Source of the DNA: Amoebidium appalachense | Lineage: Eukaryota > Protista > Ichthyosporea | Assembly (NCBI GenBank): GCA_963693365.1 | Contig: CAVNZM010000012.1 | Span: 5,220,889-5,284,888 of the forward strand | Direction of reading: 5' to 3' | Length of the DNA: 64,000 bases | Shown here: piece after piece, positions 1 through 42,247 of the stretch | How the letters are laid out: every line of letters begins with the position of its first letter | Position numbering within the stretch: the first letter of the stretch is position 1 | Position numbers and translations under genes: made by a program | Notes under the pieces: model-generated | The model's database searches: none | Told to the model about the DNA's origin: nothing | What the model saw: only the letters and a program-made list of their open reading frames with translations

Positions 1-501
1 AAGTACGCGAACCTCATCACCAAGTACGATGAGGCACTGCACCAGGCCCTCGCCGTGACCAAGAACCTGTTCCAGGAGCCGTATCCGCAGCGTGCCCTCG
101 CGCTTCCCCCCTACATCATGCCGGACGACAGCTGCGCGGACACCGAGTACGGCCGCACGCTGGTCAAGCACACCATGGACGACATGGCCAAGATCCTGGC
201 GCCGTGGCTCAGGGAGATGGACGTGCCCGACATCCAGCTGCACATTGGCAGGCTGGTGGACATCGACGAGGACATGTGCAGGCGCCTGCGGATCCACCGC
301 AAGACATCCGTGACGTACCTGACGGCCATCTACGGGGCGTGCAAGATCCGCTGGTCGCTGCGCAACGCCACGCACCTGACCTGGCGCCAGTTCTATATGG
401 TAGTGGCGAGGTTCAACGAGCTGGCCTCCGGTGCTGGCACCGAGGTGCTCGAGTCCCGTGCCCGGGACCTGTGCGTGCGGTTTGGGTTTGATAGGGTGTG
501 A
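1..501 (+). CDS. 3' part of an intronless hypothetical protein (open from the window start), possibly viral
   Basis: Frame 1 is open from base 1 to TGA at 499-501 with very strong GC3 codon bias (KYANLITKYDEALHQALAVTKNLFQ...RFGFDRV). No domain recognised. Confidence 0.7.
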   Translation, partial: KYANLITKYDEALHQALAVTKNLFQEPYPQRALALPPYIMPDDSCADTEYGRTLVKHTMDDMAKILAPWLREMDVPDIQLHIGRLVDIDEDMCRRLRIHRKTSVTYLTAIYGACKIRWSLRNATHLTWRQFYMVVARFNELASGAGTEVLESRARDLCVRFGFDRV

Positions 502-998
502 AAGGGGGGGGGGGGGGGGGGGGGGGGGGGTTGATAGTGTTTACTGGAATATGTGTGCTGTTTTATTCTCTCGAAGGAGAGTTGGCGAATGCCAACTTTC
601 CTCCCATTCGCCGACTGGCCTATTTATGAATTTTCAAATAAACGACTATGCCTAACAAGAGAGGCCATTGTTCAAAACGACCGGTGGGTTGGGTGGGTCA
701 CGTGACGAGAAGTTGCATTTGCAACTATTCAAGGGAGATCAAGTAGCATAACCTGGCAATATACCAAGGAAAGCTGCCCCTGGGCAGGATTCCTCCCATT
801 GGTCGACCGAGTATAATGACATCGACAGGTCATGGGAGATCCAATCAGGAAGCGTCGAGCCCAAATGGGCTCCAGGGTCCCCAGGGTCACGTGACATTGA
901 CCCGTGAAGACATGCCCGCAAACAAAAAGGTCCTATTTATGAAGTTCAAATAAACAACAAAGCGGTTTGTGGAGGGACGGACGGAGCGACGTGACCAA

Positions 999-1384
999 TT
1001 AGTACATGCCGCGGGGCATGTCTTGTGCCGTGCCGGCATTCGTCTTTGGCATGCCTAATAAGCGGAACAGCAGATACCCCACGATGGCAAGCACCAAAAT
1101 GACGGCGACGACCTTGAGCATGCCACCGAACGCACCAAACATGCCGGCAAGACCCTCGCTCGACTGTTCGGTAATCTTCTCCAGCTTTGCAGCCGACTCC
1201 TGGACCGCCTTGTCGTTCATGATGTTCTCCGACACGAGCTCGGCCAGCGCTTCGATGGTCTGTACCTGATTGATTTTCTTGATTTTCAGGTTTCTGTCGT
1301 CTTTGATCTCCATCTCCTGCTTCGCGTTCATCACGAGGGTGAGCGAGCTGTCAAACGCGCGTGTTGCATTGAAGGTGAAGTCGT
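999..1384 (-). pseudogene. C-terminal fragment of an NCLDV L1R/myristoylated-membrane-protein-like gene, 5' part lost
   Basis: GC3-biased frame ...LKIKKINQVQTIEALAELVSENIMNDKAVQESAAKLEKITEQSSEGLAGMFGAFGGMLKVVAVILVLAIVGYLLFRLLG...: INQ motif, helical segment, small-residue/Gly linker and C-terminal TM helix, as in large-DNA-virus lipid membrane proteins. Coding character stops abruptly at about 1384, where a repeated non-coding block begins. Confidence 0.55.
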
Positions 1385-1507
1385 GAACCCAAAACGAACA
1401 TCGCGCGAACCCCTGCCAATATCCGGTCAACCCGAACTCGTGTTTGGCGCAAATCTAGTGAACCCAAAACGAACATCGCGCGAACCCCTGCCAATATCCG
1501 GTCAACC
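1383..1507. repeat. 50-bp direct repeat x2 at the breakpoint of the membrane-protein gene
   Basis: GTGAACCCAAAACGAACATCGCGCGAACCCCTGCCAATATCCGGTCAACC occurs at 1383 and 1458. Confidence 0.9.
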
Positions 1508-1616
1508 AACACGAACCCTCAGTCAATATCGTTCGATCCACGGAGCATCCATTTCAATATTGGTCGAATCACGGAGACCACCTTTGAATAATGCTTGAAT
1601 CGTATTCACCCGCTAT

Positions 1617-1732
1617 TCAATCTGATTGGTCGAAACATTAAATCTGATTGTACGAAACCGGTTCAATCTGATTGGTCGAAACATTAAATCTGATTGCACG
1701 AAACCGGTTCAATCTGATTGGTCGAAACCGTT
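1617..1732. repeat. 46-bp tandem repeat (about 2.5 copies) containing CCAAT boxes
   Basis: The unit TCAATCTGATTGGTCGAAACATTAAATCTGATTG(T/C)ACGAAACCGGT is repeated. Confidence 0.85.
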
Positions 1733-1915
1733 TATTGACAGGAGTCCCAATTGTTGGGGATGACCGGCTGGCTACCACCCCAGCACGTGCTTCTCCAGGA
1801 AGCGCACGAGGTACACCTTGACCGGGTGCAGGCAAAGACGTAAAAGATGAAAAATAAATAGAGAAGCCACGGGCAAGAGGGTGGGAAGCCCCCCTCCCCA
1901 AAAAACAAAACAAAG

Positions 1916-2044
1916 AGCGCACGGTCATAGCGCTCATGACACATCTCTCCAAGAACACCTGTGCAAGCGCACGGTGATTGCGCTCATGACCCTACACTCA
2001 CACAACACAGGTGCAAGCATACGCATTGCCCCAACCCCCCCGCC

Positions 2045-2102
<58 letters not shown>

Positions 2103-2372
2103 AAAGCGCCCGGTGATAGCGCTCATGACACATCTCTCCAAGAACACATGTGCAAGCGCACGGTGATTGCGCTCATTAACCTACTCTCAAACAACACAGG
2201 TGCAAGCACACGGTGATAGCGCTCAAGCGCACTGTAATAGCGCTCATGACCCTACTCTCAAACAATACATGTGCAAGCGCACCGTGATAGCGCTCATGCC
2301 CCTACTCTCAAACAACACATGTGCAAGCCCACGGTGATAGCGCTCATGACCCTACTCTCAAACAACACATGT
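1916..2372 (+). repeat. Degenerate array of the 50-bp repeat (about 7 copies), inverted relative to the 5348-5914 array
   Basis: Unit GCAAGCGCACGGTGATAGCGCTCATGACCCTACTCTCAAACAACACAGGT, interrupted by a poly-C/(CA)n tract at about 2030-2103. Confidence 0.9.
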
Positions 2373-3022
2373 GCACACACAAAGGCATTCGGGAACACAC
2401 ATGCACACTTTGCATCCCCCCTCCCCCCCCCCCCCCCCCCACAATCCCCCTCCCCCACACACACACAAAGGCATTCGGGAACACACATGCACACTTTGCA
2501 TCCCCCCTCCCCCCCCCCCTCCCCCCCCCACAATCCCCCTCCCCCACACACACACAAAGGCATTCGGGAACACACATGCACACTTTGCATCCCCCCCCCT
2601 CCCCCCCCCCCCCCCCACAATCCCCCTCCCCCCACACACACACAAAGGCATTCGGGAACACACATGCACACTTTGCATCCCCCCTCCCCCCCCCCCCCCC
2701 CCCCAATCCCCCTCCCCCCACACACACACAAAGGCATTCGGGAACACACATGCACACTTTGCATCCCCCCCTCCCCCCCCCCCCCCCCCAATCCCCCTCC
2801 CCCCCCCCACACACAAAGGCATTCGGGCACACACATGCACACTTTGCATCCCCCCTCCCCCCCCCCCCCCCCAATCCCCCTCCCCCCACACACACACAAA
2901 GGCATTCGGGAACACACATGCACACTTTGCATCCCCCCTCCCCCCCCCCCCCCCACAATCCCCCTCCCCCCCCCACACACAAAGGCATTCGGGCACACAC
3001 ATGCACACTTTGCATCCCCCTC
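2373..3022. repeat. About 85-bp minisatellite with internal poly-C, 8 copies
   Basis: Unit CACACAAAGGCATTCGGGAACACACATGCACACTTTGCATCC(C)nAATCCCCCTCCCC. Confidence 0.92.
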
Positions 3023-3133
3023 CACCCCCTTCGTGAGAATGCACTGAGTGTCACATATTTATAATAAGTTGAATTTTATTGATTGTGAAAAAGCACGAAG
3101 TCGCCTACCCTGCTAGTAATATGGTGATACCGA

Positions 3134-4993
3134 TCAGTCAGGCCATTGATCGTAAAAGAGCACGAAGTCGCCTGGCCTGCTGGTAATATGGTGATACCGA
3201 TCACAGTCAGGCCAAAGTTCATCCCATGTGTTGGTTGCTGCTTCATAATACAACCAGTGGTCGTATGGTTCACCAACTACTTGCACATGGTGATTCCTGA
3301 TGGCATCCTCGAGGGCTATCTGACACGGCAGTTGCGGGTACCAATCCGCACCATCCAAAACCTCGGCGATAGGAACAGCACTCCACAGGGCATCCGCGCT
3401 GGGAGACGTGTCAGGCTGGCCCGTGGTCTTGTTAATACCGATATAGCTGCCGCGCTGTTGTTCCAAATGGTCGGAGGGGGTTTGTACCCAAAATAACTCG
3501 ATGTCTGCCTGCCAGGGGCAGACGCCGTCGGCATCGTTGAGCATGATTTGGTCAAATCCACTCGGGGGGTAGATGACGGCCGCTTGCCGGGTTTCGGTGT
3601 CGTAAGCATACAACCCGTCAACAACGAATGGCAAATCTCTACCTTGCCCCTCCGCTTTGGCTGTTTTGAACTCTTCGCGCTCAACATCTTTCCTGATTGT
3701 GTCAATTAAGTCTCCCCAATCGAAGGGAAGCACAATGACGTGTCGTTTGTTCATGACGTCCACAAGCATCTGCCACGACACGCCCACTTGCAGACGCCGC
3801 ATGTATGTGGAAATTTCGACGGTTTCGATGTCGGTATCGATCTGGCCCAGGGGAACAAACTCGCCTTCTTCCTGCCCTTCCTGAATCTCGTAAGCAAACC
3901 ACCCCGTGCACCGCCCGAATATGTTTTTGCGCTCGGCAGGCCCACCCTCGCTGTAATCCGCCTGGACCCTGCTAACTAAATTCGAAAGCTTTTTGTCCCA
4001 TTCCAGCTTGTGTCTAATGATGTTTGCGTAGTCGTACAGGTGGGCTTGGGTACGGGGTGCAGTTGTAACTGGCGGGTTTGAGGCAGCTTGTGCCAAAATA
4101 TTGGCCTTTTGGGTGGCCATATCTAGTATTATATTCGCATGGACATCGTCGTAGCCGTCGTTGTCGTGGTCCCTCCGGTGGGCATAATGGTCCATCAATC
4201 GCAGCAGCAAACACGTGTTAAACGACTCTAACGTATACGCAGAGCTGTCTAACTTGACAACTCCTGCAGACCCTCGCAACCACGCAGTGCACGGCGGGTA
4301 ATGCCGCAGTTTGCCGTCCCCCGTGTACCCCTCACTGGGGTGTGTCTCTACGATCCTTCTAATAGCATCCTCAGGAAGTAAACCCCACCAGTTCCAGAAC
4401 CTACTATCCTGAAAATCACTGTTATTCTCTATCGCGTATTGGACATCCGCCAAAGTGGAGGTTGCAAAAAACATATCGGCAAAGCTCTCGCTCGTTTTTT
4501 GGTCCAGTTCGGACATTTTTGCCGCAATCTCTGCTGCTGTGGCCTGCATCACCGTCCTAGTTGCAAGGCAACAGCGCCCTTCAGGGTTGTACACGGCCAG
4601 CTTGTCATAGCTTCGGAGGTACACCGCTGTGCATGCACGGAAACCTGCTTTCAACTCTTCCTGCAGTTGCAATAGACTCAACGAGGTGTCTACCTCAAAC
4701 ACAACAAAAGGGTGCAACGTTTCCACTAGAGTGACATCTTCGGGGGTTGAAACCGTGGCAAGGCCGTTGGTGTTTGCAAGAGAAAACACTACAACATCTT
4801 CCCCTACAGGGCCTAACAACAGCGGTGTCTTCGATGGAACGATCCGAACACGCACTGGCATTGAGGGTGCAAGTCCCATTGCTGACAGCGAAATAATAAT
4901 TCTGCCTATACCCTGCATGCCAAATCCTGTTGTGTTTTCGTGCAGCTGAGGTCGGTGTATTTGAAACGATTTGGATATAATAACATCAGTCAT
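3134..4993 (-). CDS. 619-aa intronless hypothetical protein (ORFan)
   Basis: Long, complex-sequence ORF from ATG to TGA with globular-protein composition. No recognisable domain. Confidence 0.8.
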   Translation of the reverse strand: MTDVIISKSFQIHRPQLHENTTGFGMQGIGRIIISLSAMGLAPSMPVRVRIVPSKTPLLLGPVGEDVVVFSLANTNGLATVSTPEDVTLVETLHPFVVFEVDTSLSLLQLQEELKAGFRACTAVYLRSYDKLAVYNPEGRCCLATRTVMQATAAEIAAKMSELDQKTSESFADMFFATSTLADVQYAIENNSDFQDSRFWNWWGLLPEDAIRRIVETHPSEGYTGDGKLRHYPPCTAWLRGSAGVVKLDSSAYTLESFNTCLLLRLMDHYAHRRDHDNDGYDDVHANIILDMATQKANILAQAASNPPVTTAPRTQAHLYDYANIIRHKLEWDKKLSNLVSRVQADYSEGGPAERKNIFGRCTGWFAYEIQEGQEEGEFVPLGQIDTDIETVEISTYMRRLQVGVSWQMLVDVMNKRHVIVLPFDWGDLIDTIRKDVEREEFKTAKAEGQGRDLPFVVDGLYAYDTETRQAAVIYPPSGFDQIMLNDADGVCPWQADIELFWVQTPSDHLEQQRGSYIGINKTTGQPDTSPSADALWSAVPIAEVLDGADWYPQLPCQIALEDAIRNHHVQVVGEPYDHWLYYEAATNTWDELWPDCDRYHHITSRPGDFVLFYDQWPD

Positions 4994-4994
4994 C

Positions 4995-5100
4995 GCGCTG
5001 ATTGGCTAAACGCGGATGACACATCTTTTAACGGATGATTGGTTGGATAAATCTAGTTACCATCGGCTAGCCGCGCTGATTGGCCAAATCCAATTGGTGT
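4995..5100 (-). promoter_or_regulatory. CCAAT-box cluster upstream of the 619-aa ORF
   Basis: Four ATTGG motifs (CCAAT on the minus strand) within 100 bp, two of them in the identical context CGCGCTGATTGGC. Confidence 0.4.
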
Positions 5101-5347
5101 TGCTTCGGCATAACCCGTGCGCAAGCCCGAAAATTCGGATTTGTTTCTTGGTATTTTTTGAAGTCCGGAATATTTTTGCCTGGGGTGTATGGTATTTTTC
5201 ATCCCCAGTTAAAGGGGGTGAAAGGGGGTTCCTATTTTAGCTTACCACGAAATTTGCAGGGGTTTACCATAAACTGAAAATATGATGGTATTTTTGAAAC
5301 GTTTAGGGTATTTTTTACCGTAAAAACGGGGTTATGGTCGGGCCTGC

Positions 5348-5914
5348 CCGTGCGCTTGCACCTGTGTTGCTTGAGAGTAGGGTCATGAGCGCTATCACCG
5401 TGCGCTTGCACCTGTGTTGCTTGAGAGTAGGGTCATGAGCGCTATCACCGTGCGCTTGCACCTGTGTTGTTGGCGAGTAGGGTCATGAGCGCTATCACCG
5501 TGCGCTTGCACCTGTGTTGCTTGAGAGTAGGGTCATGAGCGCTATCACCGTGCGCTTGCACCTGTGTTGCTTGAGAGTAGGGTCATGAGCGCTATCACCG
5601 TGCGCTTGCACCTGTGTTGTTGGCGAGTAGGGTCATGAGCGCTTCACCGTGCGCTTGCACCTGTGTTGCTTGAGAGTAGGGTCATGAGCGCTATCACCGT
5701 GCGCTTGCACCTGTGTTGTTGGCGAGTAGGGTCATGAGCGCTATCACCGTGCGCTTGCACCTGTGTTGTTGGCGAGTAGGGCCATGAGCGCTATCACCGT
5801 GCGCTTGCACCTGTGTTGTTGGCGAGTAGGGTCATGAGCGCTATCACCGTGCGCTTGCACCTGTGTTGTTGGCGAGTAGGGTCATGATCGCTATCACCAT
5901 ACCCTTGCTCATGA
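5348..5914 (-). repeat. Homogeneous 50-bp tandem array, 11 copies, with an imperfect palindromic core
   Basis: CCGTGCGCTTGCACCTGTGTTG(CTTGA/TTGGC)GAGTAGGGTCATGAGCGCTATCA with period 50 (TGCGCTTGCA at 5351, 5401, 5451...). Two interspersed variants. Confidence 0.95.
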
Positions 5915-5995
5915 GCGCCCCCCCCCCCCCCCCCAAACCCTCCTCCCATCTACCCGCACAACCCCAACCCCACATTATATCGTGCACCGGGTAAC

Positions 5996-6388
5996 ATGGA
6001 CGCTGGCGCACCCCTTCCCCCACCCAGCCCATTCGCACCCCCTCCCCCGATCCGCACAAGCCCGCGCAGCACCCCCGGGCCCTCCCCCATCCTACTGGCC
6101 ATCCTGGCCGGCCTGATCCTCTACGTGCTCTGGGACACGTTCAGCCCACGTGTGCGGCGGCGCCTGGCAGTGCTCAAGTGCCAGCGCGCGTGCCCAATGT
6201 GTGCCAGCTGCGGCAGCTGCGTTCCCCGCCGCAAGTGTGCGCACTGCCCCCGCTGCCACGTGTGCGGTGCCAGCCCCACCCGGTGCGCACAGTGCCCCGC
6301 ATGCACGCGCTGCCCGCCCGAGCAGAAGTGCCCGGCGTGCCCCACGTGTGCGCATGCGCCTGCGGTGGTGATCAAGGAGCGCACTTGA
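5996..6388 (+). CDS. Small membrane protein: Pro-rich N-terminus, one TM helix, CxxC/CPxC-repeat domain
   Basis: TM segment ILLAILAGLILYVLW followed by CQRACPMCASCGSC...CAHCPRCHVC...CAQCPACTRC...CPACPTC. GC3-biased and intronless. Confidence 0.75.
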   Translation: MDAGAPLPPPSPFAPPPPIRTSPRSTPGPSPILLAILAGLILYVLWDTFSPRVRRRLAVLKCQRACPMCASCGSCVPRRKCAHCPRCHVCGASPTRCAQCPACTRCPPEQKCPACPTCAHAPAVVIKERT

Positions 6389-6424
6389 AGGGTTGGGTGA
6401 GCAGAGATTTTTGTGGCATAGAGT

Positions 6425-6685
6425 ATGGCGTACCGATGGGAGTACAAGCTGAAGGAGGAGCCCGGCAAGGCACCCGTGGTGCAGGCAACTATTGTGCCGA
6501 CCGAGGCCACCACCCGGCGGACGCAGATGGAGCAACGAGTATATGCACAAGAGCTTGCGGAAAAGGGCTATATAGATCTGCCCGATGAGTTGGCGGAGAA
6601 GTGTGGATTCAAGAAGTGGGTGCCCAAGAATCAACGACAGACAGCAATTGTACTGCAGAAGATGATGGAGCCTGAGGATGCATAG
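6425..6685 (+). CDS. 86-aa hypothetical protein
   Basis: ATG-TAG ORF with coding-like codon usage, 36 bp downstream of the previous gene (virus-like packing). Confidence 0.6.
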   Translation: MAYRWEYKLKEEPGKAPVVQATIVPTEATTRRTQMEQRVYAQELAEKGYIDLPDELAEKCGFKKWVPKNQRQTAIVLQKMMEPEDA

Positions 6686-6879
6686 AGACCTACACACAAA
6701 GGATGAATGGACTTACACCACAAACATGGAAAATGTAAATGACGAGAGAATCTCCACAAACATGGAAAATGTAAATGACGAGAGAATCTGTTGGGATGTT
6801 TAATTTTGATGAGCTGGAGTCTATCTCCCCCCCCCCCCTCCCCTTCACCGTTCAATGAAAACTTGGTAGCATGTGTATC

Positions 6880-6940
<61 letters not shown>

Positions 6941-7217
6941 GTGTGTGTGTGTGTGTGCGTATGTGTGTGTGTGTGTGTGTGTGTGTGACAATGTACGTGC
7001 CAGTGTGCTTGTACACAGATTGAAAAGGAGACTTGGGGTATATTAAATGGAGTCTCTCCCGCTACCACGGGCAAATACATTCAATAATCATTACGGAAAC
7101 TTGGTACTGTTACCGGGCAAATACAATATACATGAAAATTTGGATAAGATTGAAGCAGATCACATTCGAATAAACATTACAGAAAACTTGGTATGAAAAC
7201 TTTGTACCACGTCTTTC

Positions 7218-7460
7218 CTCCACCACACCCACCACAAACCCTAAGTAAGATGTGAATGTGGGGCCTACCCGCCGCCACCACTACAACTACGTTTCCCCCA
7301 CCGCACCCACCACAAACCCTAAGTAAGATGTGAATGTGGGGCCTACCCGCCGCCACCACTACAACTACGTTTCCCCCACCGCACCCACCACAAACCCTAA
7401 GTAATACCCGCCGCCACCACTACAACTACGTTTCCCCCACCGCACCCACCACAAACCCTA
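7218..7460. repeat. About 78-bp tandem repeat (about 3 copies) starting at the KDM4-like stop codon
   Basis: Unit CCACCACAAACCCTAAGTAAGATGTGAATGTGGGGCCTACCCGCCGCCACCACTACAACTACGTTTCCCCCACCGCAC. The third copy is internally deleted. Confidence 0.9.
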
Positions 7461-7784
7461 GGCCACATTCATTTTGGCTTCCTCCTCGAACTCCTTGATG
7501 TCAGCCTTGTACTTCTCTCTCAGCTTTTTCCACTGTGCAGGGGACACCTGTGGGTTGATAGTTGGGTGTAAGTGGTAGTCCAGCCAGGTGATTTGTTTAT
7601 GCAAGGCTCAGACATCACTGTATGCCATTACCTCAAACACACCCACGCACCCACCACTACACCACCATGGCACACACCCACAGAAAACGAACTCCTACGT
7701 GTGGACCAGGTCAAGAAAAACTCTGCAAGGACCCAAAAAACCGTTTTTACGAACCCCTACATGTAATTGTGAATGCTAGGGCAT

Positions 7785-7852
<68 letters not shown>

Positions 7853-7878
7853 GTGTTTGTTTGTTTGTTTTTTTTTTT

Positions 7879-7909
<31 letters not shown>

Positions 7910-10900
7910 GGAGGGGGGGGGAGGGGGGTTACCTTGAAAACGTGTTTCCTGTCAGTGTAGCCACACGTGCATGCCGGGGGGGGCTTCTTGCCAGCGACCA
8001 CAAGCCAGTTGACCGTGGCAAAATTTACCGCCTCGGCCAAGCTGCTACCAGTAGCATACCCAAAGTGGTATGCCCCAGGCAATGTGTAGATGACCTCGCC
8101 GGCCTGCTGAACCGTGTGCTGCACAGGAACACCCTTCTTCATCAAGTAACGGGGGTGGATGAACACAGACTGTCCCACCCACATGTTAGTCATATGAAAA
8201 ACTGGGTGGTCGTTTTTGTAAGTGCTTTTTTGTTTTTTGTTCTTCACGTCATTCACGTCAGTGTCTACCACTCCCTCTCTCTCTCTCTTCTTGTAGTCCT
8301 CTGTTGTGTGTGTGGTCGTTTTTTTTTTTTTTTTTTTTTTTGGGGGGGGGGGGGTGGTGAGGGATTACCTTATGCTGTGTGACTTTCTTGCAGATACCGG
8401 CCCCCGAAAGGCCAAGCCTCTTGTAGATATCCTCGAGGATAGACGTGACCTGTCCATTGTACTCTGCACTGATTATATACCAGCTTTTGTCTCCGGGCCC
8501 ACGGGTCATGATGTTGACACTTCCGAGCAGACCGTCTTCTGTGTGGGGCACAAACGGAGACCCCGTCGTGACACTGCAAGGAGGCATGTGATTGGGGTTA
8601 AAACAATAATTAGTTCCGACTTCGATGTGATCCAATACATTCCGAGAAGACCTGACCCATACACATACACCCAGGATGGTTCTGTGAACAAAAGGGGCAT
8701 TCTGCAAACCTGCCTTTTTTCCCTTTGTTGTTTGTTGTTGTGTTTTTTTTTTTTTGGGGGGGGGGGAAGGGGTGGGGGGGCATACTTATAGAGCATCGGT
8801 GTTGAGATGCCCTCACAGTTCTGGAACTCTCTCGATACAATCGAGCCCAGCGTCTCCAAGCTGAACATGTAGTCGATTTCTTCCCTCACTACCTGTACAC
8901 ACACCACATTGCATCAACACAACATACACTCTCCGCACAAACACACGCACACACCCATGCCTACACAACATGCACTCTCTGCTGCACAAACACACGCACA
9001 CACCCATGCCTACACAACATGCACCCTCTGCTGCACACACACGAATACACCCATGCCTATACAACATGCACCCTCTGCTGCACACACACGAATACACCCA
9101 TGCCTACACAACATGCACCCTCTGCTGCACACACACGAATACACCCATGCCTACACAACATGCACCCTCTGCTGCACACACACGAATACACCAATGCCTA
9201 TACAACATGCACCCTCTGCTGCACACACACGAATACACCCATGCCTACACAACATGCACCCTCTGCTGCACACACACGAATACACCCATGCCTACAGAAT
9301 ACACCCATGCCTTCACAACATGCACCCTCTGCTGCACACACACGAATACACCCATGCCTACAGAATACACCCATGCCTTCACAACATGCACCCTCTGCTG
9401 CACACACACGAATACACCCATGCCTACAGAATACACCCATGCCTTCACAACATGCACCCTCTGCTGCACACACACGAATACACCCATGCCTACACAACAT
9501 GCACCCTCTGCTGCACACACACGAATACACCCATGCCTACAGAATACACCCATGCCTTCACAACATGCACCCTCTGCTGCACACACACGAATACACCCAT
9601 GCCTACAGAATACACCCATGCCTTCACAACATGCACCCTCTGCTGCACACACACGAATACACCCATGCCTACACAACATGCACCCTCTGCTGCACACACA
9701 CGAATACACCCATGCCTACAGAATACACCCATGCCTTCACAACATGCACCCTCTGCTGCACACACACGAATACACCCATGCCTACACAACATGCACCCTC
9801 TGCTGCACACACACGAATACACCCATGCCTTCACAACATGCACCCTCTGCTGCACACACACGAATACACCCATGCCTACACTGTAACATGCACCCTCTGC
9901 TGCACACACACGAATACACCTATGCCTACACAACATGCACCCTCTGCTGCACACACACGAATACACCCATGCCTTCACAACATGCACCCTCTGCTGCACA
10001 CACACGAATACACCCATGCCTACACAACATGCACCCTCTGCTGCACACACACGAATACACCCATGCCTACACAACATGCACCCTCTGCTGCACACACACG
10101 AATACACCCATGCCTTCACAACATGCACCCTCTGCTGCACACACACGAATACACCCATGCCTACACAACATGCACCCTCTGCTGCACACACACGAATACA
10201 CCCATGCCTACACAACATGCACCCTCTGCTGCACACACACGAATACACCCATGCCTTCACAACATGCACCCTCTGCTGCACACACACGAATACACCCATG
10301 CCTTCACAACATGCACCCTCTGCTGCACACACACGAATACACCCATGCCTACACAACATGCACCCTCTGCTGCACACACACGAATACACCCATGCCTACA
10401 CAACATGCACCCTCAGCTGCACACACACGAATACACCCATGCCTACACAACATGCACCCTCTGCTGCACACACACGAATACACCCATGCCTTCACAACAT
10501 GCACCCTCTGCTGCACACACACGAATACACCCATGCCTTCACAACATGCACCCTCTGCTGCACACACACGAATACACCCATGCCTACACAACATGCACCC
10601 TCAGCTGCACACACACGAATACACCCATGCCTACACAACATGCACCCTCTGCACAAACACACGCACATACACACACATGACACACACGTACCTCACTGGG
10701 TGTATGGGTGTTTTTAAGAGGTGTCAGATCCGTTCCGTAAAAGAACATTTTACTGTAAGTTTCCGGTAAGCAGTCCAATTGCCCCCAGAACTCCTCCTCA
10801 TCCAACGGGTCCCCCTGCTCAATCGTGTTAGCTCCTGTTCACGGTAACCATACCCTAATGGTTGCAAATACGCACCTCTGGAATTTGCTCTTTGATGTCG

Positions 10901-12909
10901 TCCCTATAAACGAGGAAGACATCCTTGATGGCGGTAGCCTCCAGACAGATCTTGGTGTAGGATTTTCTCACTGGTGTGGCCCAAGCAGCCTCTTTCAGCC
11001 CCTGCACTACCGGTTCGGGAAGCATGAACTTGACGGCACCAGCTGCCCGAACCTCGTGTCGTTTTTCCATTACCCTAACTATCGTCTCAAATGAGAGCTT
11101 TTCTAACTGCAGTTGGCTGAGATGTTTCACGGGTACCTCGGTGAACCCCACCGACTCCCCTGTCTCCGCCCCCTGCTGTTGCCCCCTATCCGCCTCCTCC
11201 GCTTCTTGCTCTGTGTGTGTGTGTGTGTGTGTGCCATGCGTGTGTGCACGTGTGTGCCGGGTGTGTGTGCATGTTTGTGCCGGGTGTGCGTGTGCATGTG
11301 TGTCGGGGTGGGGGGTAGGATTAGCCAAGGTGGATGCACGTGTGCAGGTGTGTGCTCTCTCTCTCTCTCTGTGTATGTGTGTGGTGGTGGTGGTGGTTGG
11401 GTGTGTGTGGCGGGGACTAGTCGAGGTGCCCAGGTGCATGCATGCGTGCAGACGTGTAATGGCTTGTGTGTTGGGGGGGTGGGGGGAGGGGGGGGGGGGA
11501 TAGCCTGGCAGGTGCATGCGTGCGTGCAGACGTATGATCCCTTCCGTGTGTGTGCGGGGAGAGGGGGGATAGCCCAGGTGCATGCATGCGTGCAGACGTG
11601 TGATCCCTTCCGTGTGTGTGCGGGGAGAGGGGGGATAGCCCAGGTGCATGCATGCGTGCAGACGTGTGATCCCTTCCGTGTGTGTGCGGGGAGAGGGGGG
11701 ATAGCCCAGGTGCATGCATGCGTGCAGACGTGTGATCCCTTCCGTGTGTGTGCGGGGAGAGGGGGGATAGCCCAGGTGCATGCATGCGTGCAGACGTGTA
11801 ATGGCTTGTGTGTTGGGGGGGGGGGGGGGGGGGGAGGGGGGGGGGGAGCGGGGGGATAGCCCAGGTGCATGCGTGCGTGCAGACGTGTGATCCCTTCCGT
11901 GTGTGTGCGGGGAGAGGGGGGATAGCCCAGGTGCATGCATGCGTGCAGACGTGTAATGGCTTGTGTGTTGGGGGGGGGGGGGTTACCCGGCCTGAAATCC
12001 CAAGGAGATGTGTTGCGGGTGTGGCGGTAGCCCTCTGCCCCCCTCTGCCCCTCCCTCTCCTCCCCCATCCCCACCCTCTCCCTCTCCCTCCCCCTCCCCC
12101 CTCTCCCCCCTCCCCACCCCCACCCTCTCCCTCTCCCCTCCCCCTCCCCCCTCTCCCCCCTCCCCACGCCCACCCTCTCCCTCTCCCTCTCCCTCCCCCT
12201 CTCCCCCCTCCCCACCCCCACCCTCTCCCTCTCCCTCCCCCTCTCCCTCCCCCTCTCCCCCCTCCCCACCCCCTCCCTCTCCCCCCTCCACTCTTGCCCG
12301 CTTTCTCGGTCGGTCACTCGTCGGTGCAGGTAGCTTGAAAGCGGGGCTGCCTGGGGGGCTACGTGCAGCCCCATCCCACCACACTTTCCATCCGTGCTTT
12401 TTGAAGATGCGACAAATCTGGAACTCCCCCGGCAAAGTACCCACCACGGCAGGTATGCGACTGTAGTCCTTACTGCCAGGATACAGAGAAATGCGACCGA
12501 GCTTCACCGCCCAACCCTCACTCGAAAACGGATGATAGCTGTGAAGATCATAAATCTTCCATCGAGGACCACCAAATCTGAGAATCCAGGCTACAACTTC
12601 CGGGATGCCCATGTCGTTTTCGAATTCGTGTAGGTTGTAGTTCTTCCTGCAACTAGGACGTCCGTCGTCCAGTTCAATCAAAAAAACATAAACATGTTCT
12701 GAACCCGTTGGCATCACCAAATATATGATCGGTGCGAGTTTTTTTTTTTGAGGATGACGATAAATACTCTGACGTGTGAGTAGCCTTTTACCGGTAAATA
12801 TAACTGACGGATCAACGTCGTTCGAAAGCCTAAATGTGGGTGGGTCGAGTGGTATGCTGCTCGGGAATGCACGAGTGATGAGCGCCAGAATATTGCCGTT
12901 AACAGCCAT
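7458..12909 (-). CDS. Spliced KDM4/JMJD2-like JmjN-JmjC histone lysine demethylase
   Basis: Exons (minus strand): about 12909-11987 (unknown N-terminal domain + G/E-rich linker; linkage uncertain); 11210-about 10875 (JmjN-like PVKHLSQLQLEKLSFETIVRVMEKRHEVRAAGAVKFMLP); 10834-10692 (EEEFW..FYGTD); 8892-8786 (GISTPMLY); 8573-8369 (HTEDGLLGSVN..KSWY..CKKVTQHK); 8169-7933 (QQAGEVIYTLPGAYHFGY..AEAVNFA..W..CTC); 7547-7458. The last four introns are GT-AG and phase-consistent, and one has an ACTAAC branch point. The first two junctions are not cleanly resolved. Confidence 0.88.
8940..10662. repeat. 47-bp minisatellite (roughly 34 copies) filling a 1.8-kb intron of the JmjC gene
   Basis: Unit CACACACGAATACACCCATGCCT(A/T)CACAACATGCACCCTCTGCTGCA, with several internal duplications of about 19 bp. 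It lies between the donor at 10691 and the acceptor at 8893. Confidence 0.95.
11427..11972. repeat. 66-bp minisatellite (about 8 copies, two variants) in the first JmjC intron
   Basis: Unit GATAGCCCAGGTGCATGCATGCGTGCAGACGTGTGATCCCTTCCGTGTGTGTGCGGGGAGAGGGGG at 11568, 11634, 11700... Confidence 0.92.
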
Positions 12910-13024
12910 GTTGCTGTGTGTGTTTTTGTGATGTGTGTAATTGTGAGCACCCTCTGCCTGTAAGACTGTCTGTGAGAGCGCTCTGTCTGTGTGCTTGTGC
13001 CACCGTGTTGTAGCGCTCGTGCTT

Positions 13025-13162
<138 letters not shown>

Positions 13163-13462
13163 AATCGTTCCTAGGAAAGCTCGTGCATGCGCGCGCTATG
13201 TTTTTTGTGTCCAGTCTAACAATGTTTGTGTTTAGCAGAACTCGTTTGTGTGTGTGCTCTGTTTTCGTATCCCAAACAATCTACGATTGTGTGCATAAGC
13301 CTAAAATGTGCCTCGCACAGGGAAACATGAAGGAAATTCTATGTATCTGTATTGGCTAAAAAAGGGGACAACTGATAGCGCGGTGTGCACAGGTTATTAT
13401 AACAAGTTTCTTTGTTGTTTTCGTTCTGTTTTTGGCAATCTAGCCTATTTGTAATTACAATG

Positions 13463-13730
13463 GAAACATGTACAACAGCAGCGCCGGGCGAAAGTGACAC
13501 GAACTGGTGTGGTGCGCTTGATTATGTTTGAAACATGCACAACAGCAGCGCTGGGCGAAAGTGACACGAACTGATGTGGTGCGCCTGATTACGTTTGAAA
13601 CATGCACAACAGCAGCGCTGGGCGAAAGTGACACGAATTGGTGTGGCGCGCTTGGTTATGTTTGAAACATGTACAACAGCAGCGCCGGGCGAAAGTAACA
13701 CGAACTGGTGTGGTGCGCTTGGTTATATTT
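13463..13730. repeat. 67-bp tandem repeat x4
   Basis: GAAACATG(C/T)ACAACAGCAGCGC(C/T)GGGCGAAAGTGACACGAACTGGTGTGGTGCGCTTG(A/G)TTATGTTT at 13463, 13530, 13597 and 13664. Confidence 0.92.
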
Positions 13731-15204
13731 GTTCGTTCGGGAATCAAGATGGACTCTTGTAATTTCTCCGTTGTATATAGAGCGCAAAGAGAGTGTTGAA
13801 CATATATTCTCATTTCGCAAAGCTTGAAGCAAGCAAGAAAATCACGTTTTTGATGACTGGCCAATTAATGTTTTGTTCAGTTTGGCCAATGGAATCACTG
13901 ATTGGCGCGTACGTGATAATAAGCTAATCAGTGAGATCGGCTAATAATAGTTTGGGTAGCAAGGCCAGCCTGCCCAACCAAGACCCTTTTGCGAGTAACA
14001 ATTGTGATTTATTCTAATAGGCAATAAATATTAAAAAAGCATAATTTATTTATGTTTATTTATACTTTACGCGGACACAGACATTTGCTTGGAATTTTGT
14101 TTGGAAAGGGTCCTGTGAATCTGGTCTTCGAAAAGCGTTGCAGCCTTGAGTCACGGTGTATTGACCAACTAGATTGTACCAATGCCGATAAGCGCTTGCC
14201 TAGAGTACCAGTGCCCGATCACGTTGACCCAACCATTATTCACCAATCACCGATTGGTTTTGTTGGCTGGCGCATTTACGTGATGACTGGCCAATGAAAT
14301 TACTTAGTGACTGATAGCAGCACCGACCCTGGAGCGTTTTGACTGAGCAAGGAATAAGGGAAATCCTAAAAGAGGGTTGTATGTTTTATGACATATAAGG
14401 TTCTATAAATAAACAACCATGCGCTTGGGATTTTGGTTGGAAAGCGTTTTGTATTTGCCCAATTTGAATCCGATGCTTCGATTTCGGTCAATCAGAATAC
14501 CCTGAGCATCAGCGCCGCGAATCACGTGGGGCAAGAACCAACCCCTATGCACCAATCAAACGCTTGCACGTAAAAAGGTCCGCGAATAAGATGTTGTGAA
14601 AGCGTATATCCTTCGATGTTTTAAACTAGCGCTCGTTTTGTCCTGTATATTATATTTTTATTTCGTATATTCACCTTTTTTATACAGTTTACCTGTGAAC
14701 CAAACACGATTAGAGATATATTCGCTAACAGCGCCAAAAGGTTCTGTTTTTCTTATGCTTGATTCTCGTAACATAAGATCGTATTTTGCGCAATGGTTTC
14801 ACATAAATTATTGATGACGGTTTTTTTATATCAGTTCACAGCGCTGTCATTTTCTACTTTTCTGATTCTTTTGTTCATGGCTGTGTTTGCACACGACGGT
14901 GTTTGCCTAGAGAAACGTAACACTCTCTTTTTTTTTTCTTTTTCTCTTGTTCACGACTGGGTTTGCACAGGACTGTGTTTGCGCAGAGAAACGTAACACT
15001 CTTTTTTTTACTTTTTCCTTTGTTCACAACAGAGAATCGTATTTGTAGCACTTTCTTTTTTTTTTCCTTTTTCCCTTGTTTTTTTTTTTCCTTTTTCCCT
15101 TGTTCACGACTGGGTTTGCACACGACTGTGTTTGCGCAGAGAAACGTAAGACTTCCTTTCTTTTTTTCCCTTTGTTTATCCTTTTTTTTGTGAAAACTGT
15201 CACG

Positions 15205-16463
15205 ATGGATTATTCCCAGCAAGCTCCCGGGTCGGGGTCATACGAAACCAACATCAGCAAGTCCGCCGACCCCGTCACAACGCAAGCCCCCCCCCCCCAT
15301 CCAACCCCCCCCCCCACACTCCGGCGGCGAAGTCCCCTCCCCAACCAACCCCCCCCACACTCAGGCTCCGGCGGCGACGTCCCCCCCCCCCATCCAACCC
15401 CCCCCCCCCACACTCCGGCGACACTGCTCCCGTCGATCCAAAAATGTTCGAAGAGTACTTGGAGACTGTGTTGCAGTCGAAAGTAGACAGTGCCATTGCC
15501 TCTGCATTGGCAAAGGTCGGTACTGCGGCCACTGCACCCGCTGTCACCACCCCAACCACCGAATTGCAGGAGAAGCTGGAAGCCGCAGAGAAAGAATTAC
15601 AAACGAAGGATCACGACATCCAAATCCTTAAGGGGGAAATTGCCGAGCTAAAATCGGCGGCGGCCAAACAAAAACACTTTGCAGATGCAAAGGAACAGGT
15701 GTTATCGGCAAAGAATCGGGACCTCGAAGGGCAGCTTGTTGGAAAGGTGGCCGATATCCTGGAGCATCAGGCTGAAGGGGAAAGATACCGGGCCGAGATT
15801 ACCAAGCTTCAGTCACACATTGCGACCATGAGGGAATCATACCGTAGAACAATCGACGAGAGCACACAGAAACTTCGTGGGTGGAATGACCCCCAGCCCC
15901 TCCCCGACATTACCGTCCAACACGGTCTCGCCCCCCCCCTCCCCCCCCCTGGTACGACCAATCAAAATCCCACCCCCACCCTCCCCCCGCCCGGTACCAC
16001 TCAGCCCAAAACCCCCCTCAACCTCCCCCTGCCCATTCTCGCCCTCCCCCCACCCGGTTTAGCCTCTGTCATGCCCGTACCCCCCTTCAATCCGTCCCTC
16101 ACCACCGTTACCAGCACTCCTGCACCTTTTTCCCAATCCCGCACTTTTGGTGCCTCCATGATGTCGAACCCCTCTGCATATTCCCAGGGTTCAAAGAGAG
16201 GAGTGTCAGATATTTCTTTCGGTGTGTACAAACGGCACCGCCAGGAAGAGACGGCATTTGAGATGGCAATAGATGAGGAATTGGAGGACATGATGGGTAT
16301 GGGCGAGAAGGTCGAGGGGAAGAAAGGGAAAGAAAGTGGTCGAGCAAAGAAACCAAAACCGAGTCAGAAACCAGCCCCTGCCCGCAGTGGCAGGACACGA
16401 GCAAAGCAAGTTTCAGATATACATGTTATTCACGGGGACAGTGATGAAGACGAACAAGATTAG
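15205..16463 (+). CDS. Coiled-coil / Pro-rich / basic-acidic-tail hypothetical protein
   Basis: ORF 15444-16463 has a heptad-rich segment (ELQEKLEAAEKELQTKDHDIQILKGEIAELK...), a Pro-rich linker and a K/R-rich tail. The likely true start MDYSQQ at 15205 is out of frame across poly-C runs (homopolymer error or real frameshift). Confidence 0.7.
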
Positions 16464-16807
16464 GTTGGGAGTGGTGAGGGGTGTGTTTTGATTTTGTTGT
16501 ATGTGTCAGGGGCTGGGTATGGCCACAGGGGCTGGCTGATGTATTTTAATATATGACTGTTGATACTGGTAGCACCTTACGGTTTCTGTATTTATGTTAA
16601 CGAGCATCTTATGGATCATAGCATGTAGGCATCTTTTTTTTCTGGTTCTGGATGGTTTAGTATCTTGTGGTTATTATATGTGTACAAGTCTTCTGGATGG
16701 TTTAGTATCTTGTGGTTATTATATATGTACAAGTCTTGTTTTGCTGTTTTCAACCGATTAAATATCGATTGTATACAAAGAAGTCCAGGTCCCTTTTGGT
16801 ACACACT

Positions 16808-16834
16808 TGCATGCACGTTCAAAGTCTCCCCCCC

Positions 16835-16865
<31 letters not shown>

Positions 16866-17086
16866 ACACTCCCTCCCCATGCATGCATGCCCGTGTGGCA
16901 CACAGTTTGTGTGCTTTCATAAGTCTATGCACGTTCAAAGTCTCCCCCCCCCCCCCCCCCACCCCCCCCCCCCCCCCCCCCACCCCACACTCCCTCCCCA
17001 TGCATGCATGCCCGTGTGGCACACAGTTTGTGTGCTTTCATAAGTCTATGCACGTTCAAAGTCTCCCCCCCCCCCCCCCCCCCCCC

Positions 17087-17117
<31 letters not shown>

Positions 17118-17303
17118 ACCCCACACTCCCTCCCCATGCATGCATGCCCGTGTGGCACACAGTTTGTGTGCTTTCATAAGTCTATTGCATGCACGTTCAA
17201 AGTCTCCCCCCCCCCCACCCCACACTCCCTCCCCATGCATGCATGCCCGTGTGGCACACAGTTTGTGTGCTTTCATAAGTCTATTGCATGCACGTTCAAA
17301 GTC

Positions 17304-17339
<36 letters not shown>

Positions 17340-17406
17340 ACACACACACACTCCCTCCCCATGAATGCATGCCCGTGTGGCACACAGTCTATGCACGTTC
17401 AAAGTC

Positions 17407-17440
<34 letters not shown>

Positions 17441-17626
17441 ACACACTCCCTCCCCATGCATGCATGCCGGTGTGGCACACAGTCTATGCACGTTCAAAGT
17501 CTCCCCCCCCCCCCCCCCCCCACCCCCCCCCTCCCCCCCCCCACACACTCCCTCCCCATGCATGCATGCCCGTGTGGCACACAGTTTGTGTGCTTTCATA
17601 AGTCTATTGCATGCACGTTCAAAGTC

Positions 17627-17682
<56 letters not shown>

Positions 17683-17795
17683 CCCCCCCCCCCCCCCCCC
17701 CCCCACCCCACACTCCCTCCCCATGCATGCATGCCCGTGTGGCACACAGTTTGTGTGCTTTCATAAGTCTATCGATGTATATTGCATGCACGTTT
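16808..17795. repeat. 90-170-bp minisatellite with a variable poly-C core, 8 copies
   Basis: Unit ATGCACGTTCAAAGTCT(C)nACACTCCCTCCCCATGCATGCATGCCCGTGTGGCACACAGTTTGTGTGCTTTCATAAGTCT. Confidence 0.92.
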
Positions 17796-17958
17796 AAAGT
17801 ATTTATTTCCCCTCTTTTTGCACACACAGCTTTGCACACACAGCAACTGTCTTTTTTTTGTATCCACTTTGGGTATGAAGCGCTGGCGCTGGGTTTGTCG
17901 TATACTCCACTTCGGGTCTTTTTGTATGCAGCGCTGGCGCGGTGACACGTCAATCGGA

Positions 17959-18330
17959 TTAAAAGTCCGAGTGACTTGTTTGTCTCAGAGTGGTGTCGTA
18001 CTCCGCAGCACCCGTCTTCTTATTGAAATAGTATATGACTGCATACATCAATGGTGTAACCAATAAACATGTGAGGACAATAGCAGCGCTGACGTACACC
18101 AGATACATTTTGTTCACTTTCTCTCTAGCATTCGGTTCGGACTTCATTAAATTGTACCAGTGTATATTTGCAACGACACTGCATATAGATATCACATAAA
18201 GAATGCCTGTGGTGACCGTGCTGTCGAACATGTACGTGTACCTCACAAAACTTTCAGTATCCGACGTGTTACACCCCAAAAGTGACCTCTCTGAGATCTT
18301 GCCTGTGGTACAAACTCTTGATGCCGTGTT
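17959..18330 (-). CDS. Putative small two-TM membrane protein (start not defined)
   Basis: Open frame with hydrophobic segments VTTGILYVISICSVVANI and MYLVYVSAAIVLTCLLVTPLMYAVIYYF. Confidence 0.5.
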   Translation of the reverse strand, partial: NTASRVCTTGKISERSLLGCNTSDTESFVRYTYMFDSTVTTGILYVISICSVVANIHWYNLMKSEPNAREKVNKMYLVYVSAAIVLTCLLVTPLMYAVIYYFNKKTGAAEYDTTLRQTSHSDF

Positions 18331-18536
18331 GCTCTTGTGTTTTACCAGTACCCCTCTCTCCAGATGCCGAATTTATATTGGAATTCGTGAATACACCCAT
18401 GTGATTTGGTCAGTGGTTTGGCACCAAGAGATTGATTGATATGCCATCAACCAGTCAACAAAAAGTACTCGCTTTTACTTTTTGTCTCACTTCACCCCAA
18501 TCCAAGAACAGTGCACACCAAAACAAAACACTAGAA

Positions 18537-19019
18537 ATGGGAGACGCACTTTTGCGCCCCGATTCGGTTGACCCCGAACGATGCCCTGCATTTGCACCCT
18601 CAAAAAAAGCCCAGTGCAAAAACAAAAAGAAAACATGCCCATACCACAAGGACGGCTTCAAGCCCTGGGTATGCTTTGCCCCTGCCACCGGTGTCCTCCT
18701 CTACAGCGACAACACCATCAACATCCTCCACACCCACAAGGCCGGGGACTATGCTCATGCAAACCTCCTGTTGGACGACCTCATGGCCGTGTTTACAGTC
18801 GCAGAAATGCAGCGCCCTCGCACCGAGCGCACCGGGGTACCCGCGCTGACTGTGTCCACTCCGGATCCACCCATGGGTGCACCACAGCCACCGGTTGCAG
18901 CTGCAGCGGTGGGTGTGGGCAGGGAAAATGGGTACTGCCAGGGCAAAACCAAGGCTGGCAATCCCTGCAAAAACAGGGTGAAATCTACGACCCATTGCCA
19001 TAAGCACAAGCCCAAATAA
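18537..19019 (+). CDS. 160-aa protein with two C3H zinc-finger motifs of the type common in giant viruses (DUF5763-like)
   Basis: N-terminal CPAFAPSKKAQCKNKKKTCPYH and C-terminal CQGKTKAGNPCKNRVKSTTHCHKH. Intronless, with an A-rich leader before the ATG at 18537. Confidence 0.75.
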   Translation: MGDALLRPDSVDPERCPAFAPSKKAQCKNKKKTCPYHKDGFKPWVCFAPATGVLLYSDNTINILHTHKAGDYAHANLLLDDLMAVFTVAEMQRPRTERTGVPALTVSTPDPPMGAPQPPVAAAAVGVGRENGYCQGKTKAGNPCKNRVKSTTHCHKHKPK

Positions 19020-19679
19020 AAAAACCACCCACACACCCACACGTGCCAACATACACTATCCTCCCCGTGAGTGGCATGCCAGTCTCCCCAGCCCCCCTGC
19101 CCCCCAGCCCCCCTGCCCCCCAGCCCCCCTGCCCCCCTGCTCCCCTGCCCCCCTGCTCCCCTGCCATATGCACACCCACACACTGGGTGCCTCCCCTGCT
19201 CCCCTGCCTGCCGGAACCAGGCCCCCCAGTGGTGGCATTCCAACACGTGCATGCTAGAAGATCGTGCTACATGAACAAATGGTCTTAACTCAGCCATACA
19301 TGGGGGATAGATAGTATCACACAACCATGGTTCCCCCACTCTCCCCAGCCTCCTGTGCACGTGTGCCTCCCCCGACCCCCTGCCTCCCCTGCACGTGTGC
19401 CCCCCCTCCTGCCGGAACCACGGCCCCCAGTGGTGGCAGCCAGTGCCTTACATGCTAATCTATTCTATGGCCACATGACCAGATGGCCAGATTGTTTTGA
19501 CTTCAGGTGGATCCCCCCCCCCCCTGCTCACAGACTGAATTTGATCTGGCCATCTGGCCATCTGGGTATAAACCGTTTTCTGTTCTAATATTGGAGAACT
19601 GTCGATAGTGATAGAAAATGTCATTGGAAGAACAATCGGGAAATCCCGCGGTGTGACAACCAATCAGAATGAAGCAATA

Positions 19680-20069
19680 TTGGGATATTCGGGTTGGTTG
19701 TAAGGTTTTCCGGGTCGAGCCGAAGGCCCTAACGGGCCGCAGGCCCGCCTATTGGGCCGCCAGGCCCTAGGCCGCCAGGCCTGGGGCCCCGGGGACCGGG
19801 GCGCCCGACCCGGCCCGCGAGCCACCCCCGGCCCGGCCCGGCCCGGCCCGCGGGGCCCGGCGCCGGGGTTAGCAGCTGCTGCTAACCCCGGCGCCGGGCC
19901 CCGCGGGCCGGGCCGGGCCGGGGGTGGCTCGCGGGCCGGGTCGGGCGCCCCGGTCCCCGGGGCCCCAGGCCTGGCGGCCTAGGGCCTGGCGGCCCAATAG
20001 GCGGGCCTGCGGCCCGTTAGGGCCTTCGGCCCGACCCGGAAAACCTTACAACCAACCCGAATATCCCAA
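19680..20069. repeat. 390-bp GC-rich near-perfect palindrome (hairpin/cruciform)
   Basis: Arms are 19680-19876 and 19878-20069, centre TTAGCAGC-T-GCTGCTAA (1-nt loop at 19877). I see one mismatch and one extra GGCCC unit in the left arm. Confidence 0.97.

Positions 20070-27136: not shown

Positions 27137-42247
<15,111 letters not shown>

Follow-up and report, generated by a model that had tools for sequence, protein, structure and literature searches.

In Amoebidium appalachense, 132 insertions of giant-virus DNA have been annotated (PMC11244446, cited here and below from extracts of its text). The most enriched feature of these giant endogenous viral elements (GEVEs) is a multi-exon KDM4-like gene encoding a JmjC domain only, found in 52 insertions (39%) and in 'a couple' of places outside them, so that the Amoebidium parallel drawn in an earlier note on the present locus is real. 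In the same source, a preference for mCGC/GmCG is the default methylation of Amoebidium genes that are transcribed, and in silenced insertions methylation extends to every CG context. A second point of reference is the L1/F9 family of nucleocytovirus membrane proteins, which are disulfide-bonded (bioRxiv 10.64898/2026.08.29.747986, cited from part of its text). The locus analysed here lies at the left end of a stretch of 64,000 nucleotides of the A. appalachense assembly (GCA_963693365.1, contig CAVNZM010000012.1, positions 5,220,889–5,284,888, forward strand), referred to as the window and numbered from its first nucleotide. Its segment 1–19680, which carries a broken membrane-protein gene and a seven-exon KDM4-like gene, is probably what erosion has left of one end of a giant virus (Nucleocytoviricota) integrated in the manner of the Amoebidium GEVEs. 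Insertions of this kind have been published already for Amoebidium, the segment most likely being one more eroded example, and the locus may itself be among the 132 annotated in PMC11244446. The intronless open reading frames (ORFs) named in the earlier note were all found (1–501, 999–1384, 3134–4993, 5996–6388, 6425–6685, 15444–16463 and 18537–19019).

One of these, ORF2 (999–1384, minus strand), is broken at 1384 and corresponds to the C-terminal half of a membrane protein that is L1/F9-like (pE248R-like). When 1.84 billion representatives were scanned in full with HMMER, six homologs with E ≤ 0.001 and lengths of 217–254 amino acids were obtained; ORF2 aligns to their C-terminal halves (best match 41% identity, E 2e-19). 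A profile search for the family added one further homolog, P0009. All six aligned homologs have a hydrophobic segment at the C-terminus, and the C-terminal transmembrane segment of ORF2 reaches a Kyte–Doolittle 19-residue maximum of 2.79 at residue 91 of 127. The full-length homologs begin with MG in six of seven cases and carry S/T at position 6 in five of seven, an N-terminal myristoylation motif that is absent from the truncated window copy. Homolog P0003 was modelled from a nine-sequence alignment (predicted local distance difference test, pLDDT, 57). The first three of at least 500 matches to this model in BFVD were African swine fever virus (ASFV) pE248R (E 8.4e-3) and, in this order, the lipid membrane proteins of a marseillevirus (1.2e-2) and of a pithovirus (4.9e-2); iridovirus 118R was placed at rank 8 and the myristoylated 006R of invertebrate iridescent virus 3 (IIV-3) at rank 29. 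Searches with ORF2 itself gave no relevant match in Pfam, NCBIfam or PDB. The L1R-like fragment of the earlier note is thus backed by its homologs and their predicted fold and receives no backing from Pfam or PDB. On the modelled fold, the assignment of ORF2 as an L1/F9-like nucleocytovirus protein without the family disulfides has moderate support. A match to snRNP-G (E 0.016) was rejected, the ORF2 family being helical.

The N-terminal (5') half of ORF2 was found nowhere in the window by tblastn. Contigs from sequencing runs X3 and X17 diverge from the window sequence exactly at 1384, and the break is therefore particular to this copy, not common to all of them. No loci for ORF2 or its homologs were found in IMG/VR or JGI. 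The only named homologs, P0001 and P0007, are hypothetical proteins of Daphnia pulex (on a 1,025-bp contig) and Daphnia sinensis (on a 183-kb contig), and the others come from sequencing-run assemblies. As Amoebidium is described, in the extracts available, as an epibiont of freshwater arthropods, the Daphnia homologs could plausibly come from an epibiont that was assembled together with its host, or from a virus of that epibiont, and both homologs are probably viral or epibiont sequence.

ORF1 (1–501, plus strand) is a 5'-open ORFan with 166 amino acids in the window. Neither a family nor a fold was found for it, no relatives were present in IMG/VR or JGI, and its ESM Atlas matches were all below 0.9. 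A TFIIB/cyclin-like identity, guessed by eye, was dropped as unsupported; the single-sequence model had a pLDDT of 41, and its fold search was meaningless. Contigs of four sequencing runs (X3, X5, X17 and X24) were placed on 1–1610. X5 contributed 509 contigs (296 with at least 99% identity, 153 at 95–99%, 38 at 90–95% and 22 below) and X3 contributed 272 (179, 69, 11 and 13 in the same bins); X17 contributed seven, and X24, a possible RNA run, none, which is not evidence of silence. Among the longest pieces listed, the main sequence class has a depth of 1,900–8,400, a second class, about 88–92% alike, 600–2,400, and a third 44–150. The ratio of the main to the third class was 30–63 and 40–68, and that of the second to the third 16–18 and 13, in two runs from different studies. 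Depth is not copy number, as the tool itself warns, and without a single-copy baseline the estimate rests on this internal ratio only: if the third class represents one or two copies, the main class would comprise tens, and the family of 1–1610 is probably present in tens of copies.

Of 50 sequence differences, 40 were listed, and 33 of these fall in ORF1. Among the 33, 26 are synonymous versus 24% expected (P 3e-11), and outside a small compensated indel patch 24 of 26 differences are synonymous; this marks ORF1 as a real gene, with variants that diverged while selection acted on them. Purifying selection between classes, together with contig depths in the thousands and the finding that other copies are unbroken at 1384, would also suit free or episomal viral genomes from a persistent or reactivating infection, with the window as one integrated or mis-joined copy. 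Two runs that belong to different studies have similar class ratios, as fixed chromosomal copies would give, and PMC11244446 reports that neither particles nor capsid reactivation were seen in Amoebidium; we regard an episomal source of the depth as very improbable. As a separate observation, the spacer between the convergent ORF1 and ORF2 (531–998) contains an AT-rich motif of about 25 bp in two direct copies (620 and 933) and a 10-bp palindrome twice (697 and 886), and contigs of X5 and X3 omit 92–93 bases at 670–764.

The KDM4-like JmjC gene (7458–12909, minus strand) has seven exons (12909–11987, 11210–10876, 10814–10692, 8892–8786, 8573–8369, 8169–7933 and 7547–7458) and GT–AG introns of 61–1799 nt, and the KDM4-like gene of the earlier note is thereby confirmed; for exon 3 the acceptor at 10814 was preferred to one at 10834, since it is preceded by a branch point and maintains the reading frame. 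Exons 2–7 comprise 364 stop-free codons and contain, in this order, YGTD, HTE, KSW, C-x5-H, YH, AEAVNF and C-x-C. We take H-x-E...H to be the iron ligands, C-x5-H with C-x-C to be the zinc ligands, and the JmjC motifs to include the 2-oxoglutarate residues. The JmjC domain was matched in Pfam (PF02373, E 3e-12). Exon 6 matched KDM5 with E 6e-12 and chains of KDM4 with E from 9e-11 to 3e-9; the alignment runs through C-x-C only with those of KDM4 type. Pfam found no PHD or Tudor domain, and JmjN was recognised by eye only, with no domain match. No IMG/VR loci were found with exon 6, and a JmjC protein search in which 43 candidates were scored returned one snail protein with KDM5-type domains. 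If expressed, the product is predicted to be an Fe(II)/2-oxoglutarate-dependent H3K9/H3K36 demethylase that could counter silencing. Exon 1 codes for some 200 residues that match no family, followed by a frame change in a GA-rich tract (12039–12283); sequencing error, decay or an intron that escaped recognition may account for this change. CA, poly-C and minisatellite repeats of host type fill the introns, and intron 3 holds a 47-bp unit repeated about 38 times (8917–10672). The region 13740–15200, between this gene and a divergently oriented 339-amino-acid gene, is AT-rich and CCAAT-rich and contains an 11-bp TATA-like motif twice, back to back (14054 on the minus and 14404 on the plus strand); judged from its sequence, it is a possible bidirectional promoter.

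The genes of the segment fall into two compositional layers. The G+C content at synonymous third codon positions (GC3s) is 0.90 in ORF1, 0.76 in ORF2 and 0.82 in ORF4, and 0.47–0.64 in the other ORFs of 1–19680. CG dinucleotides in CGC/GCG and in other contexts were counted against 1000 synonymous-codon shuffles. In the genes of middle GC3 taken together, CGC/GCG-context CG numbered 85 versus 130±7 expected, and other CG 210 versus 202±8; in the high-GC3 set (ORFs 1, 2 and 4), CGC/GCG-context CG numbered 68 versus 75±4 (P 0.12 for the fraction). Individually, depletion was found in exons 2–7 of the KDM4-like gene (P 0.001), its exon 1 (P 0.005), ORF339 (P < 0.001), the zinc-finger ORF (P 0.016) and a 90-amino-acid ORF (P 0.037), and was not significant in ORF3 (P 0.18) and ORF5 (P 0.30). 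Repeated genes further downstream were marginally depleted (P 0.047), and non-coding stretches gave no consistent signal. Codon-pair bias of another origin could also contribute to these values. Because CG was lost only in the CGC/GCG context, a long history in host chromosomes may be read for the KDM4-like gene; on this pattern, the demethylase and the genes to its right seem to have aged there, and the left-hand genes not. The footprint is also the one hint in the sequence itself of a host resembling Amoebidium.

The same contrast would be produced if the viral remnant were the left end only (1–1.4 kb, perhaps with 6.0–6.7 kb) and the KDM4-like gene and the right-hand ORFs were adjoining host or long-domesticated genes. 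The CGC/GCG-specific loss is seen in the KDM exons, ORF339 and the zinc-finger ORF and is absent from ORFs 1, 2 and 4, and the lower GC3s of the KDM4-like gene and the right-hand ORFs and the host-type repeats of its introns point the same way. In searches of Pfam and IMG/VR, none of the ORFs to the right of 6.7 kb had a viral homolog, and host-resident KDM4-like genes outside GEVEs are known in Amoebidium (PMC11244446). Weighing on the other side, a virus-type gene lies here within 6 kb of a JmjC-only multi-exon KDM4-like gene, the feature most enriched in the GEVEs of that source, with only 'a couple' elsewhere; the neighbours here are intronless ORFans and not conserved host genes; and the downstream repeated genes are only marginally depleted, so that the footprint is no general mark of the non-viral DNA of the window. 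A remnant confined to the left end is accordingly held to be possible but doubtful. The viral boundary may be closer to 6.7 kb than to 19.7 kb.

Between the two high-GC3 portions of the left end lies ORF3 (3134–4993, minus strand), a 619-amino-acid intronless ORFan with a GC3s of 0.55; the longest frame in 1000 shuffles of the region was 254 amino acids. It stands between inverted arrays. The place of the 5' half of ORF2 is taken by a repeat spacer (1385–1915) with a duplicated unit of about 50 bp and a 22–46-bp CCAAT-containing array, followed by the left array of the 50-bp unit (1916–2375, plus strand) and an 83–86-bp array to 3029. The right array (5348–5913, minus strand) consists of 11 inverted copies, 83–92% complementary to the left array. 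A 67-bp tandem duplication at 3078–3214 spans the ORF3 stop codon. The codon usage of ORF3 differs from that of ORFs 2 and 4, which flank it on either side; ORF3 is likely to be a secondary insertion, and we infer that a repeat-bounded cassette of about 4.5 kb carrying it replaced the 5' half of ORF2. Neither a transposase (Pfam) nor a target-site duplication was found around this cassette, and relatives of ORF3 were found neither in IMG/VR nor in ESM Atlas nor in the protein database (lengths 340–1084 only). Sequence words of ORF3 were present in 20 of the 24 runs listed, with at least half of the words in 17 (four studies, and seven rows naming none), and six runs of only 1–3 million letters of contigs contained 0.57–0.87 of them, which suggests repeated sequence. 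No RNA run was among the listed runs that contain it, which is not evidence of silence.

These repeats raise a further alternative, a composite non-autonomous mobile element (virus fragment, host KDM4 paralog and ORFans) copied as a unit, its demethylase shielding the copies from heterochromatin; integration would then have happened once or a few times, and the high copy number would have been reached afterwards by transposition or segmental duplication. The near-identity and great depth of most contigs over 1–1610, the recovery of ORF3 words from small runs, the inverted arrays around ORF3, a 390-bp palindrome at the right end and the tandem amplification of the downstream DNA itself would all be expected of it. 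Other copies continue differently past 1384, however, and the loose contig ends there show that this exact mosaic is therefore not the amplified unit; transposase and target-site duplication are also missing from the searches described above. A composite element appears decidedly improbable.

Several findings weigh against the favoured reading of the segment as the eroded end of an integrated giant virus. No nucleocytoplasmic large DNA virus (NCLDV) hallmark gene (major capsid protein, MCP; VLTF3; A32; D5; PolB) was recognised among the window ORFs listed and scanned, which agrees with the earlier note's statement that capsid, polymerase and packaging ATPase genes are not visible. Evidence for a viral family exists for one of the eight intronless ORFs, ORF2, and is indirect. 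The fold search used the low-confidence model of a homolog, no match reached E 0.001, and TM-scores were about 0.4. Neither ORF2 nor its homologs matched PF02442 in Pfam, and vaccinia L1/F9 was absent from the PDB results, which held only generic helical bundles (VIA, Foldseek). The ORF2 family has zero to three cysteines (none in the fragment, one to three in the homologs, one of them partly conserved), unlike the disulfide-bonded L1/F9 proteins; as conserved disulfides are lacking, it was filed as L1/F9-like and not as a member. Most contigs over 1–1610 are at least 99% alike (296 of 509 in X5 and 179 of 272 in X3), whereas the insertions of PMC11244446 are, in the extracts available, highly divergent among themselves. 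The contig depth over 1–1610, having no single-copy baseline, is not a copy number. The gene sets of the CG-context test were drawn after GC3 had been seen, 12 ORFs were tested, and the CGC/GCG footprint with host-type intron repeats fits a plain host gene equally well. Finally, the segment is gene-sparse and repeat-rich, unlike the gene-rich GEVEs described in PMC11244446. The earlier note had called the ORFs closely spaced, which is wrong: 1–19680 is 37% coding and 36% tandem repeat, and the spacers between genes measure 0.3–2.5 kb in seven of eight cases and 36 bp in one. For a GEVE, such a composition would be compatible only with an eroded end.

On the favoured reading, that of an eroded viral end, the following history may be proposed. 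ORF2 would have encoded an entry protein of L1/F9 type and, like ORFs 1 and 4, would be virus-born. The sequence classes would have diverged under selection, that is, in replicating viruses, before repeated integration or copying. In the decay of the present copy, the 4.5-kb ORF3 cassette would have displaced the 5' half of ORF2, and the minisatellites would have expanded. The KDM4-like gene, with its presumed long history in host chromosomes, would have been captured by the virus or carried with it, and its enzyme, if expressed, is predicted to erase repressive H3 methylation. A bolder version, which we consider unlikely, is that JmjC-rich GEVEs are in part host–virus chimeras, one arm being viral, rich in GC3 and equipped with an L1/F9 variant that lacks disulfides, the other consisting of a KDM4 paralog born in the host and its CGC/GCG-scarred neighbours, and that the whole has been amplified as a unit to tens of near-identical copies under its own anti-silencing enzyme. 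If this were true, the direction of KDM4 transfer, left open in the extracts of PMC11244446, would be from host to virus, and such GEVEs would represent a virus-derived selfish element with a chromatin eraser.

The claim of the earlier note that 1–19680 is the end of an integrated virus therefore stands in part. A nucleocytovirus origin of the left end is supported by the ORF2 fold, the GC3s of 0.76–0.90 and the sequence classes under purifying selection; that the whole of 1–19680 is one viral end is not shown. The searches for giant-virus relatives placed the ORF2 family as L1/F9-like and left the other ORFs as ORFans. An exact-sequence lookup of ten window proteins in a protein collection found none of them (0 of 10), and an Rfam search of 1–27000 gave no match. 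The segment is contiguous in the assembly with intron-rich, microsatellite-rich DNA; the run contigs are short, and none spans the stretch.

ORF4 (5996–6388, plus strand, 130 amino acids) has one transmembrane segment, 16 cysteines and 11 CxxC repeats including five CPxC, in agreement with the earlier description of a membrane CPxC protein, and no homolog of it was found. The one IMG/VR locus obtained with it, L001, was set aside as a chance match (16 residues in GC-rich DNA whose ORFs, by eye, resemble tailed-phage head genes). ORF5 (6425–6685, plus strand) is an 86-amino-acid ORFan beginning 36 bp past ORF4, and ORF339 (15444–16463, plus strand) is a CGC/GCG-depleted 339-amino-acid ORFan of coiled-coil and proline-rich type. 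The hydrophobic, AT-rich 90-amino-acid ORF (17959–18231, minus strand) may not be a gene. The zinc-finger ORF (18537–19019, plus strand, 160 amino acids) does encode the two C-C-C-H fingers that had been noticed; their likeness to DUF5763 (PF19067) was not upheld, as the second finger scored 10.4 bits against a cutoff of 26.3 (E 0.48) and the first had no match, and no IMG/VR loci were found.

The right boundary of the segment as drawn in the earlier note (19680) coincides with the start of a GC-rich palindrome of 390 bp (19680–20069) with arms 99–100% complementary, a 1-nt centre and internal GGCCC-type repeats. No target-site duplication was seen at it; we judge it more likely to be a foldback or MITE-type element (miniature inverted-repeat transposable element) than the hairpin end of a virus, and no feature connects it with the virus. 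Beyond it, 20233–20987 holds a broken, AT-rich reverse-transcriptase fragment in two frames, probably of non-LTR (long terminal repeat) type (Pfam RVT_1, E 5e-9). From 28 to 64 kb, a unit of about 10 kb is repeated three to four times with 87–97% identity and partial rearrangement. It contains a multi-exon gene with a last exon of about 370 codons and an intronless ORF of about 290 amino acids, copies of which lie at 37777–38742, 47617–48585 and 61156–61773 and show a weak AP2 match (E 0.03). The downstream multi-exon gene, used in the earlier note as the host-type comparison, belongs to this repeated unit and is therefore not an ordinary single-copy host gene, which makes it a poor control.

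The CG-context test separates virus-born from host-aged genes inside insertions, and applied genome-wide it could show whether the KDM4-like genes were captured from the host, a question left open in the extracts of PMC11244446. The ORF2 family forms a small cysteine-poor L1/F9-like group and flags probable viral or epibiont sequence in Daphnia assemblies. Literature searches turned up no paper that deals, for the genes of Amoebidium GEVEs, with L1/F9, with copy number or with decay by CG context.

Compared with the KDM4/JMJD2 enzymes (human KDM4A–D and yeast Rph1), the window gene shares the compact catalytic core with H-x-E...H, YG-x-D, KSW and C-x5-H with C-x-C, as well as the AE-x-x-NF of KDM4D; it differs in having neither PHD nor Tudor domain, in its unrelated N-terminal region of about 200 amino acids and in exon 6, which scores KDM5 slightly above KDM4. 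With the L1/F9 family (vaccinia L1R, ASFV pE248R, iridovirus 118L/R and the marseillevirus and pithovirus lipid membrane proteins), the ORF2 homologs share the MG motif and the C-terminal transmembrane segment, and one of them the three top BFVD fold matches; the ORF2 family differs in being nearly cysteine-free and in matching neither Pfam nor PDB, and the window copy lacks the N-terminal half. The GEVEs of A. appalachense (PMC11244446) differ from the segment in that it has no recognised core gene (MCP, VLTF3, A32 or D5) in the window, is gene-sparse and minisatellite-rich, has mostly near-identical copies and carries ORF2, an L1/F9-like gene not being named in the extracts of that source. 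The likeness lies in virus-type ORFs without introns that neighbour a KDM4-like gene of several exons encoding JmjC only, in the secondary insertions and the many related copies, and in a CGC/GCG footprint that matches the methylation preference of the host.

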